Shown piece by piece: positions 10,845-24,520 of a stretch of DNA of 64,000 bases. The notes under the pieces were generated by a model. It was not told where the DNA came from. It searched no databases and was given only the letters and a program-made list of their open reading frames with translations. This DNA is from a virus. Taxonomy: Duplodnaviria > Heunggongvirae > Uroviricota > Caudoviricetes. Position numbers and translations under genes: made by a program. Each line of letters starts with the position of its first letter. The first letter of the stretch is position 1. Location: positions 1 to 64,000 of IMG/VR virus record IMGVR_UViG_3300002835_005179. One strand, 5' to 3'.

Positions 10845-12104
10845 ATGTCTAATCTACAAAACAAATGGAAAGCGATTCTGGAACACCCAGAAGCTGCTCC
10901 AATTAAGGACGCTTACAGAAAGCAAGTAACTGCAGTTCTTTTAGAAAACCAAGAAAAGGCTCTAGCAGAATCAAGAAAGATCATCACTGAATCTGGTGTT
11001 CCATCAAACGTTGCAGGAAACGTTGATAAGTTTGATCCAATTCTAATTGCTCTAGTTCGTAGATCTATGCCAAATCTAATGGCTTATGATATCTGCGGCG
11101 TTCAGCCAATGAACATGCCAACAGGTTTGATCTTCGCAATGAAGTCAAAGTATGGTTCAGGCGCAACTGGTCCTCTATCTTCAACTGAAGCTCTATTCAA
11201 TGAAGCAGATACTGACTTCTCTGGAACTGGTACTCACCAAGATAATATCTTTAGAACTTCTTCAGATACACTATCTACTTATGGTACTGGTATGGCAACT
11301 GCAGACGGCGAAGGTTTCTCACCACTAAACATGGGTTTCTCTATCGAGAAGGTAACAGTTACTGCAAAGACTCGTGCTCTAAAGGCAGAATACTCTCTAG
11401 AATTGGCACAAGACCTAAAGGCTATGCACAATCTAGATGCAGAATCTGAGCTATCTAACATCCTATCAACTGAAATCATGGCAGAAATCAACCGTGAAGT
11501 TATCAGAACTCTATACAAGATTGCAAAGTCTGGTGCATCTTCTGGTACAACTACAGCAGGTTATTTCGATCTTGATACAGATTCTGACGGACGTTGGTCA
11601 GTTGAAAGATTCAAGGGTCTAATGTTCCATGCTGAAAGAGAAGCAAACCAAATTGCAAAGGCAACTCGTAGAGGAAAGGGTAATATCATTATCTGCTCTT
11701 CTGACGTAGCATCTGCTCTAGCAATGGCAGGCAAGCTAGATTATACTCCAGCTCTATCTACTGATCTAAACGTCGACGATACTGGTAATACATTTGCTGG
11801 TGTTCTAAACGGCAAGTACAAGGTCTATGTTGATCCATACTTCGCAGTAGGTTCTGGCGTAACATTCTCTGACGTCATGGTTGTTGGGTACAAGGGATCT
11901 AACGCTTATGACGCTGGTTTATTCTACTGCCCATACGTTCCATTACAAATGGTCAAGGCAGTTGATCCAGATACATTCCAGCCAAAAATAGGTTTCAAGA
12001 CCCGCTACGGCATGGTCGCAAACCCACTATCTGGCGACGGAAACACTCTAGGTGCAGCTTCCAACGATTATTATAGACTCGTCAAAATTAAAAATATTCT
12101 CTAA
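10845..12104 (+). CDS. gp23: Major capsid protein (gp23-like)
   Basis: 419 aa. The N-terminal propeptide-like region and the block VRRSMPNLMAYDICGVQPM are typical of T4 gp23. Confidence 0.9.
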   Translation: MSNLQNKWKAILEHPEAAPIKDAYRKQVTAVLLENQEKALAESRKIITESGVPSNVAGNVDKFDPILIALVRRSMPNLMAYDICGVQPMNMPTGLIFAMKSKYGSGATGPLSSTEALFNEADTDFSGTGTHQDNIFRTSSDTLSTYGTGMATADGEGFSPLNMGFSIEKVTVTAKTRALKAEYSLELAQDLKAMHNLDAESELSNILSTEIMAEINREVIRTLYKIAKSGASSGTTTAGYFDLDTDSDGRWSVERFKGLMFHAEREANQIAKATRRGKGNIIICSSDVASALAMAGKLDYTPALSTDLNVDDTGNTFAGVLNGKYKVYVDPYFAVGSGVTFSDVMVVGYKGSNAYDAGLFYCPYVPLQMVKAVDPDTFQPKIGFKTRYGMVANPLSGDGNTLGAASNDYYRLVKIKNIL

Positions 12105-20319: not shown

Positions 20320-20421
20320 GTTCTATGAAAAATATGTTTACAAGAGAACTTGTAAAAATATTGCATCTAGATCTGGTTCTAATTCATCTGGTTGGTCGGT
20401 AGCAACTTGGACTCCTACATC

Positions 20422-20607
20422 ATGAAGAAATCAATTTACAAAAGAAATATTGGGTCTAGGTCTTGGTCTGGGTCTAGGTCTTGGTCTTGGTCTGGGTCTT
20501 GGTCTGGGTCTTGGTCTGAGTCTAGGTCTAGGTCTGAGTCTAGGTCTAGGTCTGAGTCTAGGTCTGGGTCTGGGTCTGGGTCTTGGTCTTGGTCTAGGTC
20601 TAACTAA
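20422..20607 (+). CDS. Ser-Xaa dipeptide-repeat small protein, copy 1 (61 aa)
   Basis: Leader MKKSIYKRNIG, then (S-[RWGE])n encoded by (TCTNGG)n, ending RSN-TAA 4 nt before the next ATG. Confidence 0.5.
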   Translation: MKKSIYKRNIGSRSWSGSRSWSWSGSWSGSWSESRSRSESRSRSESRSGSGSGSWSWSRSN

Positions 20608-20611
20608 AAAT

Positions 20612-20854
20612 ATGATAAAGAAATCAATTTACAAAAGAAATATTGGGTCTTGGTCTAGGTCTGGGTCTAGGTCTGGGTCTGAGTCTAGGTCTGAGTCTTG
20701 GTCTTGGTCTGGGTCTGAGTCTAGGTCTGAGTCTGGGTCTTGGTCTAGGTCTTGGTCTGAGTCTTGGTCTAGGTCTGGGTCTGGGTCTAGGTCTAGGTCT
20801 AGGTTTAGGTCTGGGTCTAGGTCTAGGTTTAGGTTTAGGTCTGGGTCTAACTAA
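20612..20854 (+). CDS. Ser-Xaa dipeptide-repeat small protein, copy 2 (80 aa)
   Basis: Leader MIKKSIYKRNIG plus the repeat, ending GSN-TAA. Confidence 0.5.
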   Translation: MIKKSIYKRNIGSWSRSGSRSGSESRSESWSWSGSESRSESGSWSRSWSESWSRSGSGSRSRSRFRSGSRSRFRFRSGSN

Positions 20855-20858
20855 AAAT

Positions 20859-21083
20859 ATGATAAAGAAATCAATTTACAAAAGAATTATTTGGTCTAGG
20901 TCTGGGTCTGAGTCTGGGTCTAGGTCTTGGTCTGAGTCTGGGTCTTGGTCTTGGTCTTGGTCTTGGTCTGAGTCTTGGTCTGGGTCTAGGTCTTGGTCTG
21001 GGTCTGGGTCTTGGTCTTGGTCTGGGTCTGAGTCTGGGTCTTGGTCTAGGTCTAGGTCTGGGTCTAGGTCTGGGTCTAACTAA
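20859..21083 (+). CDS. Ser-Xaa dipeptide-repeat small protein, copy 3 (74 aa)
   Basis: Leader MIKKSIYKRIIW plus the repeat, ending GSN-TAA. Confidence 0.5.
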   Translation: MIKKSIYKRIIWSRSGSESGSRSWSESGSWSWSWSWSESWSGSRSWSGSGSWSWSGSESGSWSRSRSGSRSGSN

Positions 21084-21165: not shown

Positions 21166-23391
21166 ATGATTATTTCACATTCTCCTGATAATAATGTTGT
21201 TCTTTCTTCTATTGATAGAACAGATGAATTTAAAATCAAGAATTCTTCGAAAGCATTCTCGATTTTAAGTTCTGGTTTATATGCAAATAAGATTAAAGCG
21301 ATTATTCGAGAACTTTCTTGTAATGCTTATGATTCGCATGTGGCAGCAGGAAAGAAGGATATTCCGTTTGACGTACACCTTCCTAATCGTATTGAACCAT
21401 GGTTCTCTATTCGTGATTATGGAACTGGTCTAGATGACACACAAGTGAAATCTATCTATACAACTTATTTCGAATCAACGAAAACGCATTCGAATGAATT
21501 CGTTGGTGCACTTGGACTTGGTTCCAAATCACCATTCAGTTATACTGAAAACTTCAGCATCACTACGATTAAGAACGGTAAGTGTTGGATTTTTAGTGCG
21601 TTCGTGAATGAACATGGCATCCCTTCCATTGCGTCTATGGGAGTTTCTGATACGACAGAACCGAACGGCGTTGAGATTAAATTTTCAGTAGATAACCAAG
21701 ACGATATCGTTAAGTTTGTCACAGAAGCTCCTAACGTATTTATCTGGTTCGAGACACAACCAAATATCTCCGGTAATAGAGAGTATACATTATCTTTCGA
21801 TTACGTCGTTAAAAGAGAAAAGAATTACGAAGAACAGAATATCATACCAGGAATTCATGTATTATCTACAAGAGGTTATGGTACTAGTAAAGCTCTGATG
21901 GGAAATATCTGTTATCCTATTGATGTTCCAAACGCAAAAACGAATTTAACGGATAAACTGCATTCTTTACTATCCAATAATCTTGTAATGGAATTCAATA
22001 TTGGAGAATTAGATTTCCAAGCTTCTCGAGAAGGTTTGGCTTACACTCCGTTGACTATTTCTTCAATCAAGAATAAACTTCAAAAGTTAAGTGATTCATT
22101 GTACTGTATTCTAGATGAACAAGCTAAACAACACAATCATAATTCTTGGTTTCTTGCAGATTTCTTAGTTAATAAAAATTCTCTTCCTATTTGGAAGATG
22201 ACTGTGACAGAATATGTAAATAATAATAACTTAAATGTTGTCGCAATTAACAAATACAATAATTTACATGAAATCTATTACAATGTAATTTCTATTTCGC
22301 GAGAAAAGTGTTCTGAATTCAATATTTCAATTAATTCTTTCGAAAAGGATTCGTATTCTGGAAGAACTAGAAGATATGATCTAAATAACTCTGGCATTAA
22401 TATGTATCAAACATGTTCAAAATACAAGTTCATTATTAATGATACGACTATTGGTGCTGGAGAAAGATGTAAACGATATATCGATAATCTAGAAACAGGA
22501 CACAAGATAAAGAAATTTATCCTTTTACAGAAAATCGATAAAGATAAAGATATGAATCTTGAAGAATTCTTCAAGTCAATAAGTAATCCACCAGATGATA
22601 TTATCATAAATGTTTCTACCCTTCCGGAATTGGAAAAGAAAAAGAGAACCAAAGATGTAACAGTTGTTAAAATACAAGAAGATAATAGAAAATATTACAA
22701 TCCAAATTATACTTGGAAAGAATGTGGTAAATTACAAGATCTAAATAACACGACGAATACCATGTATTATATTCCTCTTTCTGGGTATAATGTTATTTCA
22801 AATTACACTACTGACTTTAAAGGAGTCTATAAATTATTGAAAGAATGTGGTTTTTTTGGACCGATTGGTTCACGTATGACTATTTATGGAATCAGAAAAG
22901 GGGATATTGAATCACTTTCGAATTATCCAAATTGGATAAATATTGAACGTGTTATTATCGATAAATTACAATCCGAAAAAGAATCCATTAAGAATCGAAT
23001 TTATGCAGATTTGAATATTGACTGCATCAATAAATTCAAGTATAATAAAAATATATTGGATAAATTGAATGATAATTCTCCATTCAAGAAAGTTGTTCAA
23101 GAATTCAATATAACAAATAATTCGAAAAACAACAAACCAGGTTCAATTAATTCCTATATGATGTTGGCGAATATATATTCCAACGATAATATCTATAAAG
23201 AATTAAAGGAATTCCAGTTGGCGGCAGAAACTAAAGTGCAAACAATTTTAAATAGATATCCATTATTACGTTATATGGTTGATATTGATTCTTATTTGTT
23301 TGAAACAGACAAAAATAGATATGATGTATTTGCAGGATACATTAATTTAATTGACGATCAGAAAAAGGAGTTAACATGTTCCCTTACTTAA
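21166..23391 (+). CDS. rIIA: rIIA-like protein (GHKL ATPase-type N-terminus)
   Basis: 741 aa. N-terminal IRELSCNAYDS..DYGTGL..GALGLGSKS matches an HATPase_c-like pattern. Directly upstream of rIIB. Confidence 0.8.
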   Translation: MIISHSPDNNVVLSSIDRTDEFKIKNSSKAFSILSSGLYANKIKAIIRELSCNAYDSHVAAGKKDIPFDVHLPNRIEPWFSIRDYGTGLDDTQVKSIYTTYFESTKTHSNEFVGALGLGSKSPFSYTENFSITTIKNGKCWIFSAFVNEHGIPSIASMGVSDTTEPNGVEIKFSVDNQDDIVKFVTEAPNVFIWFETQPNISGNREYTLSFDYVVKREKNYEEQNIIPGIHVLSTRGYGTSKALMGNICYPIDVPNAKTNLTDKLHSLLSNNLVMEFNIGELDFQASREGLAYTPLTISSIKNKLQKLSDSLYCILDEQAKQHNHNSWFLADFLVNKNSLPIWKMTVTEYVNNNNLNVVAINKYNNLHEIYYNVISISREKCSEFNISINSFEKDSYSGRTRRYDLNNSGINMYQTCSKYKFIINDTTIGAGERCKRYIDNLETGHKIKKFILLQKIDKDKDMNLEEFFKSISNPPDDIIINVSTLPELEKKKRTKDVTVVKIQEDNRKYYNPNYTWKECGKLQDLNNTTNTMYYIPLSGYNVISNYTTDFKGVYKLLKECGFFGPIGSRMTIYGIRKGDIESLSNYPNWINIERVIIDKLQSEKESIKNRIYADLNIDCINKFKYNKNILDKLNDNSPFKKVVQEFNITNNSKNNKPGSINSYMMLANIYSNDNIYKELKEFQLAAETKVQTILNRYPLLRYMVDIDSYLFETDKNRYDVFAGYINLIDDQKKELTCSLT

Positions 23392-24137
23392 TTCAAGGTT
23401 CTAACATTATTATTGTGATTGGGTCGAAGACTCATACAATCAACAAACAACATCTTTCTTATAACAAGATTGTAGATGCCATCAAGACAAGCGATTGGGA
23501 TACTGTGAAGGATCTCATTGAACCAAAGAAAGCCATTCTGAAGTATGGTGCTGGGAATATCTCAATCCAAGGTGACAAGATCTTCTGGAAGGATGAGGAG
23601 TTCACTAATTATTTATCAGATAAGATTGTTTCTATGTTCCAAGAAGGATTTCCAATTGAACCGATGGTTCTATTTATGGAGAATCTAATGAAGAATCCAT
23701 CGAAGCGTGCAGTTAACGAACTGTATGGTTTCTTGGAAAAGGGGAAAATGCCTATTACTTCAGATGGTTGTTTCCTTGCTTACAAGCGTGTCCGTTCTGA
23801 TTATAAAGACGTACATAGCGGAACATTCGATAATTCAGTAGGCAAGATCGTTCAGATGGAACGAAATAAAGTAGACGACGACAAGGATCGAACTTGTTCC
23901 AGCGGTTTACATTTCTGTTCTGAAGAATATCTAAAGCATTTCTCTGGTGAACGAATTATGATCTTGAAGATTAATCCACGTGATGTGGTTTCAATTCCTG
24001 CAGATTATAATGATTCTAAGGGTCGATGCTGCCGTTATGAAGTTATCGGAGAACTTGGAGCCGAAACGAATCCTAAGGATGCTTTCCAAGAGCCAGTACA
24101 AGATAATGGTATTGGTATCTGGATTGAAGTTGGGTAA
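23376..24137 (+). CDS. rIIB: rIIB-like protein
   Basis: Blocks FMENLMKNPSKRAVNELYGFL, TFDNSVGKIV, TCSSGLHFCS and NPRDVVSIPADYNDSKGRCCRYEV parallel T4 rIIB. Confidence 0.85.
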   Translation: MFPYLIQGSNIIIVIGSKTHTINKQHLSYNKIVDAIKTSDWDTVKDLIEPKKAILKYGAGNISIQGDKIFWKDEEFTNYLSDKIVSMFQEGFPIEPMVLFMENLMKNPSKRAVNELYGFLEKGKMPITSDGCFLAYKRVRSDYKDVHSGTFDNSVGKIVQMERNKVDDDKDRTCSSGLHFCSEEYLKHFSGERIMILKINPRDVVSIPADYNDSKGRCCRYEVIGELGAETNPKDAFQEPVQDNGIGIWIEVG

Positions 24138-24145
24138 AAGATATT

Positions 24146-24220
24146 GCGCTTGTAGCATAATGGTAATGTAGAAGATTCTAAACCTTCGAGATGAGAGTTC
24201 GATTCTCTCCAAGCGCACCA
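24146..24220 (+). tRNA. tRNA with anticodon CUA (amber suppressor type), CCA encoded
   Basis: - Acceptor stem GCGCTTG/CAAGCGC.
- D arm GCAT-AATGGTA-ATGT.
- Anticodon stem GAAGA/CCTTC with one A-C mismatch, loop TT-CTA-AA.
- Variable region GAGAT.
- T arm GAGAG-TTCGATT-CTCTC.
- Discriminator A followed by CCA. Confidence 0.8.
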
Positions 24221-24270
24221 AATTAAAAGAGGAATATATGACATAGAAGACTAAAATTAAGTGTGAATAT

Positions 24271-24492
24271 TTGATTTTTCACTTCAATAAGAAACATCTT
24301 GAAGATCCTTCCATTCCAATGTGGTCGATCAAAGCAAAAGGTGAAACTTATTATGTGAAGCATGTAGATTGTGCTCTACCATGGAGCACAAAAGAAACTC
24401 CTGATAATCCTCATACAAAAGGATCTATCAAAATCAAAAATTGTACTTTGACAATAGACTATCTAGATAATGCTTATATAACGGGAGAGTAA
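24271..24492 (+). CDS. Hypothetical protein (73 aa, TTG start)
   Basis: Track ORF with conserved-looking PWSTKETPDNPHTKGS. An alternative ATG exists at 24319. Confidence 0.45.
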   Translation: MIFHFNKKHLEDPSIPMWSIKAKGETYYVKHVDCALPWSTKETPDNPHTKGSIKIKNCTLTIDYLDNAYITGE

Positions 24493-24512
24493 AATCTCCC
24501 GTTTCATTTTTT
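24482..24512 (+). terminator. Rho-independent terminator
   Basis: CGGGAGA-gtaaaa-TCTCCCG followed by TTTCATTTTTT. Confidence 0.7.
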
Positions 24513-24520
24513 TATAAATA
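24513..24520 (+). promoter_or_regulatory. T4-type late promoter TATAAATA
   Basis: Exact TATAAATA 20 nt upstream of the ATG at 24540. Heads the 24.5-33.3 kb operon. Confidence 0.6.

Follow-up and report, generated by a model that had tools for sequence, protein, structure and literature searches.

The locus

We analysed a 64,000-nucleotide stretch of DNA from a tailed virus (Caudoviricetes; IMG/VR record IMGVR_UViG_3300002835_005179, positions 1 to 64,000), referred to below as the window, which has a GC content of 34% and is densely coding under the standard genetic code. The subject of this report is a tRNA gene with the anticodon CUA, which matches the amber stop codon UAG, together with a small gene that follows it on the same strand and carries TAG as its third codon. 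The tRNA had been described in an earlier note made from the letters of the sequence; the small gene had been missed there, being a small non-core gene interrupted as early as codon 3. The elements of the locus are as follows.

24146-24220, + strand: tRNA of 75 nt with anticodon CUA (ARAGORN; Rfam RF00005)
24226-24234, + strand: Shine-Dalgarno (SD) sequence AAAGAGGAA, serving the ATG at 24238 with a 5-nt spacer
24238-24246, + strand: amber gate ATG ACA TAG (start codon, Thr codon and in-frame UAG as codon 3)
24247-24492, + strand: body of the gated gene, 81 codons and TAA, in frame with the gate
24480-24513, + strand: intrinsic terminator (terminator scan), with a 9-bp stem at 24480-24503 whose loop holds the TAA of the gene, followed by a T-run

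The TAG of the gate lies at 24244-24246, the codons of the gated open reading frame (ORF) run from 24247 to 24489, and the gene begins 18 nt downstream of the tRNA.

The tRNA with a CUA anticodon

In all 64 kb ARAGORN calls a single tRNA, at 24146-24220 (+), and gives its anticodon as cta. Rfam model RF00005 matches 24146-24217 end to end (model positions 1-71) with a score of 64 bits against a gathering score of 29 (E=1.4e-11), and it also places CUA at the anticodon; neither program proposes a different one. The earlier note had described a clean 75-nt cloverleaf, the only tRNA in the window, and every detail that it listed is borne out by both programs and by our reading of the sequence. 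From 5' to 3', the first strand of a perfect 7-bp acceptor stem (GCGCTTG/CAAGCGC) is followed by TA, the D arm GCAT-AATGGTA-ATGT with A14 and with GG in its 7-nt loop, a single A, the anticodon arm GAAGA-TTCTAAA-CCTTC, a 5-nt variable loop (GAGAT) and the T arm GAGAG-TTCGATT-CTCTC; the second strand of the acceptor stem leads to the discriminator A73 and an encoded CCA. The anticodon loop reads U32-U33-CUA-A37-A38, next to an A31.C39 mismatch in the stem. The gene has the cloverleaf, G18G19, T arm and 7-nt loop with U33 of a bacterial-type elongator tRNA, and the CUA at positions 34-36, the U33 and the purine at position 37 of an amber suppressor. Six independent assemblies (JGI, ENA, Logan) agree to 100% over the tRNA and the 60 nt that follow it, which indicates that the tRNA is neither an assembly or sequencing artefact nor a recent lesion. 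Judged by its sequence, it is a genuine, intact tRNA of the amber-suppressor type.

Related loci, described below, yielded 44 distinct tRNA-CUA genes. These are very diverse, and their stems vary by compensatory changes with 4-5 pair types per position, yet all of them keep Y32-U33-CUA-A37-A38, G1-C72 and the encoded CCA. Conservation of CUA across 44 diverged sequences argues against a decayed gene and shows, at the level of sequence comparison, that the anticodon is under selection. The A-C mismatch at 31:39, to which the earlier note had drawn attention, is real and recurs throughout the class: this position is non-Watson-Crick in 23 of the 44 genes (C.A in 12, A.C in 8), position 27:43 is mismatched in 19, and RNAalifold supports only three pairs in the anticodon stem.

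A search of IMG/VR with the exact pattern returned no copy of the tRNA, and the phage collection held no relative closer than ~77%. We considered whether the closest sense tRNAs would indicate the inserted amino acid; they scatter over Arg, Met, Lys, Trp, Thr and Leu at ~70-80% identity, giving no consistent isotype. At its default threshold ARAGORN skips tRNA-CUA genes at related loci or mislabels them as tRNA-Arg(tct) or '(ct)' (L026 87-161, L027 9613-9687, L043, L096, L076, L086, L058 and L064), as the A.C or C.A mismatch at 31:39 makes the register of the anticodon loop ambiguous. Surveys therefore probably count too few suppressor tRNAs of this class.

A small gene with TAG as its third codon

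Gene callers start the ORF downstream of the tRNA at TTG 24271 (73 aa) or at ATG 24319 (57 aa). Neither start has an SD, while ATG 24238 is preceded by GAGGA; for comparison, an SD of at least 4 nt precedes 43 of the 76 genes of the window (a greedy gene set scored by codon usage) and 6.3% of random positions. The ORF belongs to a family of ~80-aa proteins with 710 homologues, whose consensus is xxxxCKExVFHFNKKHLxDPxIPMW...STKETPDNPHTKG..., with the motifs FHFNKKHL, PMW and STKETPDNPHTKG; FHFN is invariant and the Cys near-invariant. The FHFN motif lies 5' of ATG 24319 and the conserved Cys 5' of TTG 24271, which places the real start further upstream; ATG 24238, which makes TAG the third codon, is the sole candidate there. 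An SD and ATG followed by an early TAG occur in this layout only once in the 64-kb window, and the codon after the gate TAG is AAG.

The family has no match in Pfam or PHROG, and a structure search of BFVD returned only uncharacterised phage proteins. An AF2 model built from 77 sequences is all-beta with a pLDDT of 91.7, and residues 2-14 after the TAG form its first long beta-strand. The conserved, structured part of the protein thus begins right after the UAG.

Conservation of the gate in related phages

We examined the best 80 IMG/VR loci of the family, with ~20 kb each, which hold 56 distinct variants of the gene. In 55 of the 56, an SD and ATG are followed by one to four codons and then by TAG, which lies 8-11 codons before FHFN. 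The stop of the gate is always TAG in these 55 variants, never TAA or TGA; most often it is the third codon (42 variants), less often the fourth (8), fifth (4) or sixth (1). A purine always follows it (A in 49, G in 6). The genes' own terminators are mixed (TAA 37, TGA 14, TAG 3). Three homologues whose database proteins start at (V)FHFN have hidden prefixes with an SD, namely ATG TTG TAG, ATG GCT TTC TAG and ATG GCA TAG, and at many related loci the stretch from the TAG to FHFN contains none of ATG, GTG and TTG. Entropy by codon position shows a coding signature (positions 1 and 2 conserved, position 3 free) from the first codon after the TAG, and none upstream of the ATG.

For a census blind to codon 3, we searched IMG/VR with the pattern ATG N6 ATH GAR N6 TGY NNN GAN NNN GTN TTY CAY TTY AAY. 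Among the matches listed (at least 120 contigs), TAG occupies codon 3 in 94 of 94 distinct gene starts, whose median pairwise nucleotide identity is 0.76 (minimum 0.60); their third codon positions have a mean entropy of 1.12 bits, whereas each of the three positions of the TAG has 0. All sense codons one substitution away from TAG were open to these genes and none occurs, which indicates that the stop codon is kept by selection and not merely tolerated; over ~150 distinct variants it has never been swapped for a sense codon. A stop conserved in type and position, with coding constraint directly after it, is the pattern of programmed stop-codon read-through.

A scan of 1.32 Mb of related loci for an SD and ATG followed by one to six codons and TAG returned 65 cases on the family and 11 on other genes, several of the latter being endonuclease insertions with a duplicated gate. 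Aligning read-through products with uninterrupted ORFs at the related loci gave 620 TAG, 1077 TGA and 515 TAA 'sites', a count swamped by shadow frames.

Database homologues that show Gln at the gate (MSQIEYAC against MS*IEYAC, the asterisk marking TAG) were considered as a clue to the inserted residue. The DNA of L108-L110 has TAG at this position, and the proteins P0021-P0033 and similar entries come from short contigs translated with code 15, in which TAG is read as Q. The Gln is therefore an artefact of translation and carries no evidence on the identity of the inserted amino acid.

Co-occurrence of the tRNA and the gate

At default settings ARAGORN reports a tRNA-CUA upstream of the gated gene on the same strand in 52 of 78 parsed loci and in all 10 unparsed ones, and at 41 of the 80 loci no other tRNA accompanies it within ~20 kb. 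Once the threshold was relaxed and the register corrected, a same-strand tRNA-CUA was seen near 48 of the 56 distinct variants (47 upstream, 1 directly downstream). The distance between tRNA and gated gene has a median of 353 nt, with a minimum of 15 and a maximum of 3381. In a second, independent set, a tRNA-CUA is present in 73 of 84 cases among the matches listed, and for 6 of the 11 exceptions the upstream sequence is shorter than 1.5 kb. The figure for the two sets is ~86%. The pair of tRNA and gated gene recurs in well over a hundred related phage contigs.

The module has no general conserved neighbour in the related loci; peroxiredoxin, a Gly-rich protein, a RimK-like ligase and homing endonucleases adjoin it in subsets only. 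Genes for Seg-like GIY-YIG and HNH homing endonucleases are inserted between the tRNA-CUA and the gated gene at several loci (L025 5417, L036 4470, L080 3119, L081 5327 and L023 8182). Each of them is preceded by a duplicated gate and the first codons of the family gene (MA*IEY...), and the gate region seems to be a homing site.

Use of TAG elsewhere in the window

The 76 genes of the window end in TAA (52), TAG (12) or TGA (12), and the five genes for which the earlier note had named TAG as a genuine stop, the terminase gene included, are all among the 12. Reading through these 12 terminators would add only 4-23 aa, and the next TAA or TGA is no closer after genes that end in TAG than after others (p=0.87). 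When TAG was treated as a sense codon across the window, no long gene proved to be split by it, and no new long ORF appeared apart from one antisense shadow; nor is TAG depleted at gene ends. Among the traits of phages with a code-15-like recoding, the window has the phage-encoded cognate suppressor tRNA, and has neither many genes with in-frame TAG nor a scarcity of TAG as terminator. Within the window there is no genome-wide recoding and TAG is a normal terminator, as the earlier note had concluded. Its observation that no gene is interrupted stands for the long genes and fails for the small gene downstream of the tRNA, with its TAG at 24244-24246. Its proposal that the tRNA might serve TAG-containing genes elsewhere in the genome gives way to a probable target 18 nt downstream, in the same transcription unit.

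Similar figures come from the first 100 kb of Rhizobium phage RHph_I1_18, where TAG ends 11 of 134 genes and pairs of neighbouring genes in the same frame are separated by TAG once, by TGA four times and by TAA six times.

Gates on other genes and in cultured phages

Among five family members that appeared to lack the TAG, L111 and L114 proved to be gated, the gene caller having used an internal ATG. Members that truly lack it have Met at or after the position of the TAG (MIKLAC... against MS*IELAC...), which indicates that the prefix Met-X-UAG is an add-on and not part of the fold.

At three loci (L048, L112 and L113) the FHFN gene has an ordinary start and stands last in a tight operon in which a PTH2-like gene is followed by an 87-aa gene and the FHFN gene. 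Here the prefix of SD and ATG-NNN-TAG is found on the PTH2-like first gene, with the starts MK*IDGKHYCYTFIRSDLP..., MA*ITEQ...YCYCFIRTDLP... and MS*INHVYTFIRTDLP..., so that the gate behaves as a unit that can move. These gated genes score 17.4-19.6 bits with the PTH2 profile (PF01981), below the cut-off of 23, with near-full coverage of the profile in L113 and L048; the ungated PTH2-like gene of Sinorhizobium phage Phosso scores 60.6 bits. The gene order is the same, without a gate, in Phosso (L105) and Agrobacterium phage Atu_ph07 (L104), jumbo phages of ~470-490 kb, in which the FHFN domain is fused to an N-terminal extension and forms the C-terminal half of a protein of 173-176 aa. The surrounding block of both phages holds a PTH2 hydrolase and a phosphatase, and that of Atu_ph07 also a T4-like RnlA RNA ligase; the neighbourhood resembles one of tRNA repair.

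RHph_I1_18 (MN988519.1), a phage of Rhizobium phaseoli, carries an unannotated gene of the family at ~11000-11230 on the - strand (L103 3974-4223), presumably overlooked owing to its in-frame TAG. Its gate reads SD-ATG AGT GAG TTC ATG TAG, and a tRNA(cta) at 10911-10988, labelled tRNA-Pyl in GenBank, lies 10 nt past the stop of the gated gene. An ungated PTH2-like gene of this phage (EVB91_115, 37.5 bits) is unlinked, ~60 kb from the FHFN gene.

Genomic setting

The tRNA follows the rII genes, and the window also encodes a transfer-messenger RNA (tmRNA).

21166-23391, + strand: rIIA (ORF list)
23376-24137, + strand: rIIB (ORF list; product matches PF26926 Phage_T4_rIIB, and blastn matches are annotated rIIB)
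37828-38207, - strand: permuted two-piece tmRNA of the alphaproteobacterial type (Rfam RF01849, 92.9 bits; RF04321, 99.9 bits)

The stop of rIIB is separated from the tRNA by 8 nt. The rIIA-rIIB transcription block ends, at the terminator, with the tRNA and the gated gene, and all four genes are probably part of one transcript. The rIIB protein of the window recurs as an identical sequence in 43 blocks of a public assembly collection. Seven more distant loci (L001-L007), with rIIB 59-65% and rIIA ~40% identical, lack both the tRNA and the gated gene at this place and share no sequence with the window downstream of rIIB. The position of the tRNA is therefore not ancestral, and in this lineage the module sits at a variable junction.

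The only DNA matches of the window to cultured phages are distant ones in rIIB (blastn), and its large terminase is 48-49% identical to those of T4-like cyanophages. The host is probably an alphaproteobacterium, in view of the type of the tmRNA and of the cultured phages with an FHFN-family gene, all of which infect Rhizobiales. The tmRNA was not called by ARAGORN; its tag frame appears to encode ANTNVLVMSAAA followed by UAA. In RHph_I1_18 an annotated SsrA adjoins the tRNA cluster.

Upstream of rIIA, three tandem units of ~250 nt lie at 20392-21083 (+). Their ORFs begin with MIKKSIYKR(N/I)IGS and continue as long Ser-Trp, Ser-Gly, Ser-Arg and Ser-Glu dipeptide repeats, with (GL)n in another frame. 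The number and size of the ORFs called here vary among otherwise near-identical assemblies (L009-L013), which suggests that the repeat units vary in copy number.

Proposed mechanism and alternatives

We consider it likely that the tRNA acts as a functional amber suppressor whose main, and possibly only, client is the gene right after it, the two fitting together as lock and key. Guided by the strong SD, ribosomes would initiate at ATG 24238 and encounter UAG at codon 3. Without charged tRNA-CUA, release factor 1 (RF1) of the host would release only a Met-Thr dipeptide; with it, UAG would be read as an amino acid and a beta-protein of ~84 aa would result. The UAG would thus act as a translational gate and the adjacent tRNA, charged by a host enzyme and competing with RF1, as its key. 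Such a gate would tie synthesis to the ratio of charged suppressor to RF1, and could provide a delay, a threshold or a check on the host; a feedback loop would arise if the product acts on the tRNA or on termination. We infer that read-through would occur in vivo and that the gate would be regulatory. A feedback role, by analogy with prfB and by way of the PTH2-like link, is speculative.

For the larger group, that is, the T4-like and jumbo phages whose cultured members infect Alphaproteobacteria, we lean somewhat towards a more general proposal. These phages would keep the suppressor chiefly for the sake of a single invariant UAG, at codons 3-6 either of a small gene or of the first gene of a small operon (PTH2-like hydrolase, a protein of 87 aa and the ~80-aa beta-protein), the gate itself would be selected, and the circuit would measure the ratio of suppressor to RF1 or time expression.

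Several observations weigh against the proposed pairing. About 13% of the gated genes have no tRNA-CUA in the flanks that were fetched, and L034/35, L051, L053, L112 and L114 have none within 10 kb on either side. Conversely, the tRNA-CUA genes of L074 and of Stenotrophomonas phage RAS14 have no gate nearby, and the tRNA may thus have other roles. Further TAG-containing genes may lie outside the 64-kb window. Finally, the codon after the TAG is mostly AUH (Ile), a possible weak start that would allow termination followed by re-initiation.

This last point underlies one alternative, in which ATG-NNN-TAG is a leader mini-ORF that terminates, synthesis of the protein begins, through re-initiation or coupling, at the following codon (often AUU or AUA) or at an internal GTG or TTG, and tRNA-CUA is unneeded or modulatory. 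An Ile codon (ATH) does follow the TAG in 28 of 38 sequences of the main class, some loci have a GTG or TTG one or two codons before FHFN that gene callers have chosen, and minigenes of two to three codons with strong SDs are known regulators, as in the bar minigenes of lambda. However, Val (GTT), Thr, Lys and Asn codons, which are unable to initiate, also occur in this place, and the window has AAG; an internal GTG or TTG start would remove most of the first beta-strand along with the conserved Cys. Among the matches listed, moreover, the stop is TAG in 55/55 and 94/94 sequences from AT-rich genomes in which TAA dominates, and the cognate tRNA-CUA is co-located in ~86%. Re-initiation would work with any stop, so an invariant TAG and a linked cognate tRNA are left unexplained, and we regard this alternative as improbable.

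We judge equally improbable, as a replacement for the lock-and-key pairing, a general manipulation of termination, in which the tRNA reads through TAG stops of host or phage genes and the gated gene is a secondary sensor or a passenger. The unaccompanied tRNA-CUA genes of L074 and RAS14 would fit it, as would the tails of 4-23 aa that the 12 TAG-ending genes of the window would gain, and the phage's own tmRNA is in keeping with an interest in how ribosomes fare at message ends. Against this, backup stops are no closer after TAG (p=0.87) and TAG is not avoided, so that there is no sign of adaptation to heavy read-through, and the selected partner would seem to be the gate, in view of its tight linkage and its invariance. 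The two explanations are compatible, and manipulation of host termination and stage-specific read-through, both put forward in the earlier note, are possible as additional roles.

A partial or stage-specific change of code, as in gut phages, would make the gated gene one of many recoded genes, the others lying outside the window. Phage suppressor tRNAs with TAG-recoded late genes are documented (bioRxiv 10.1101/2021.08.26.457843), and the 64 kb seen here come from a probably much larger, AT-rich genome (34% GC). Yet the late genes of the window, including terminase, are in the standard code, TAG ends 12 of 76 genes and splits none, and the 100 kb of RHph_I1_18 show no excess of TAG-split genes. 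The early-TAG layout, with its 65 family cases against 11 others in 1.32 Mb, also speaks against a wide set of targets, and we hold this explanation to be very unlikely.

Hardly any weight attaches to three further readings of the gene: as a tRNA-Pyl, as a sense tRNA that has decayed or mutated, or as an initiator that reads amber. The label 'tRNA-Pyl' is what ARAGORN gives to every CUA anticodon. In tRNA-Pyl a single base separates the acceptor and D stems, the small D loop lacks GG, the variable loop has 3 nt and the anticodon stem 6 bp. The gene of the window has an ordinary cloverleaf, in which two bases separate these stems, the 7-nt D loop contains GG, the variable loop has 5 nt and the anticodon stem five positions. 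A bacterial initiator has a 1:72 mismatch and three G-C pairs in a row at the lower end of the anticodon stem, and this type is excluded by the paired G1-C72 (as in 44/44 relatives) and the A/U-rich anticodon stem GAAGA/CCTTC.

Relation to known systems and significance

Autoregulation of prfB, the gene for release factor 2 (RF2), is a precedent for an early stop codon whose decoding controls expression. There, an early in-frame UGA senses RF2 activity through a +1 frameshift, no special tRNA is involved, and the product itself reads the stop. In both systems the early stop lets expression report the balance between termination and an alternative decoding event. The gate described here differs in that a dedicated tRNA would read through, and the PTH2-like operon link is the sole pointer to a product that acts on UAG decoding.

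Recoding of TAG to Gln ('code 15') with phage suppressor tRNAs has been described in crAss-like, Lak and other gut phages (Borges et al., bioRxiv 10.1101/2021.08.26.457843; PMC9523058). The module shares with them a host that uses the standard code, a phage-borne tRNA-CUA and an in-frame TAG that makes expression dependent on this tRNA, and the proposed use, control of expression during infection, is the same. In contrast to the many TAG codons in the late genes of those phages, it has one invariant TAG at codons 3-6 of a single small gene or operon head, the tRNA is physically linked to its target, and TAG ends ~16% of genes; the phages concerned are aquatic and soil T4-like and jumbo phages.

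Laboratory amber switches, in which an orthogonal tRNA-CUA and a gene with an early UAG gate expression (e.g. PMC6412442), follow the same logic: the gene is off unless a dedicated, charged tRNA-CUA is present, and with the UAG near the 5' end, a failed read-through leaves no more than a tiny peptide. In its anticodon loop, YU-CUA-AA, our tRNA class agrees with efficient engineered suppressors, according to literature cited in PMC13092985. Unlike the laboratory systems, the present one is natural and virus-encoded, and no dedicated synthetase is evident, so that charging is presumably carried out by a host enzyme. A G27.A43 mismatch combined with a CUA anticodon is reported to raise read-through of UAG, as is a loosened top pair of the anticodon stem in tRNAs with this anticodon (PMC13092985 and work cited there). 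The tRNAs of our class resemble these read-through tRNAs, with their 'unpinned' or shortened anticodon stems, in having mismatches at the ends of the anticodon stem (31:39 in 23/44, 27:43 in 19/44), while the mismatch in the window (A.C) is at 31:39, next to the loop, and not at the 27:43 position treated there. Closer to home, the tRNA-Sup-CTA of RAS14 (OP752703) has the same anticodon and ~73% similarity to the tRNA of the window, but no FHFN-family or early-TAG gene beside it, and seems to serve another purpose or a different target.

In open-access papers and bioRxiv we found no description of a tRNA-CUA linked to a single early-TAG gene. Phage suppressor tRNAs and TAG-recoded late genes were already known; the present case differs in its single UAG, fixed in position at the 5' end of one small gene or operon, in a tRNA linked to it in cis, and in the normal use of TAG elsewhere. 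Suppressor tRNAs of phages with the standard code have hitherto been treated as curiosities or as stepping stones to a changed code, and a conserved, linked client turns such an unexplained tRNA into a testable, single-site gating device that depends on the tRNA. Standard gene callers miss or truncate the gated gene, and some pipelines silently translate its TAG as Gln. Since a cultured phage-host pair with the module exists, direct testing is feasible. If the proposal is true, these phages would possess a compact natural amber switch that operates alongside normal termination at TAG, which would be relevant both to the genetic code and to the control of translation.

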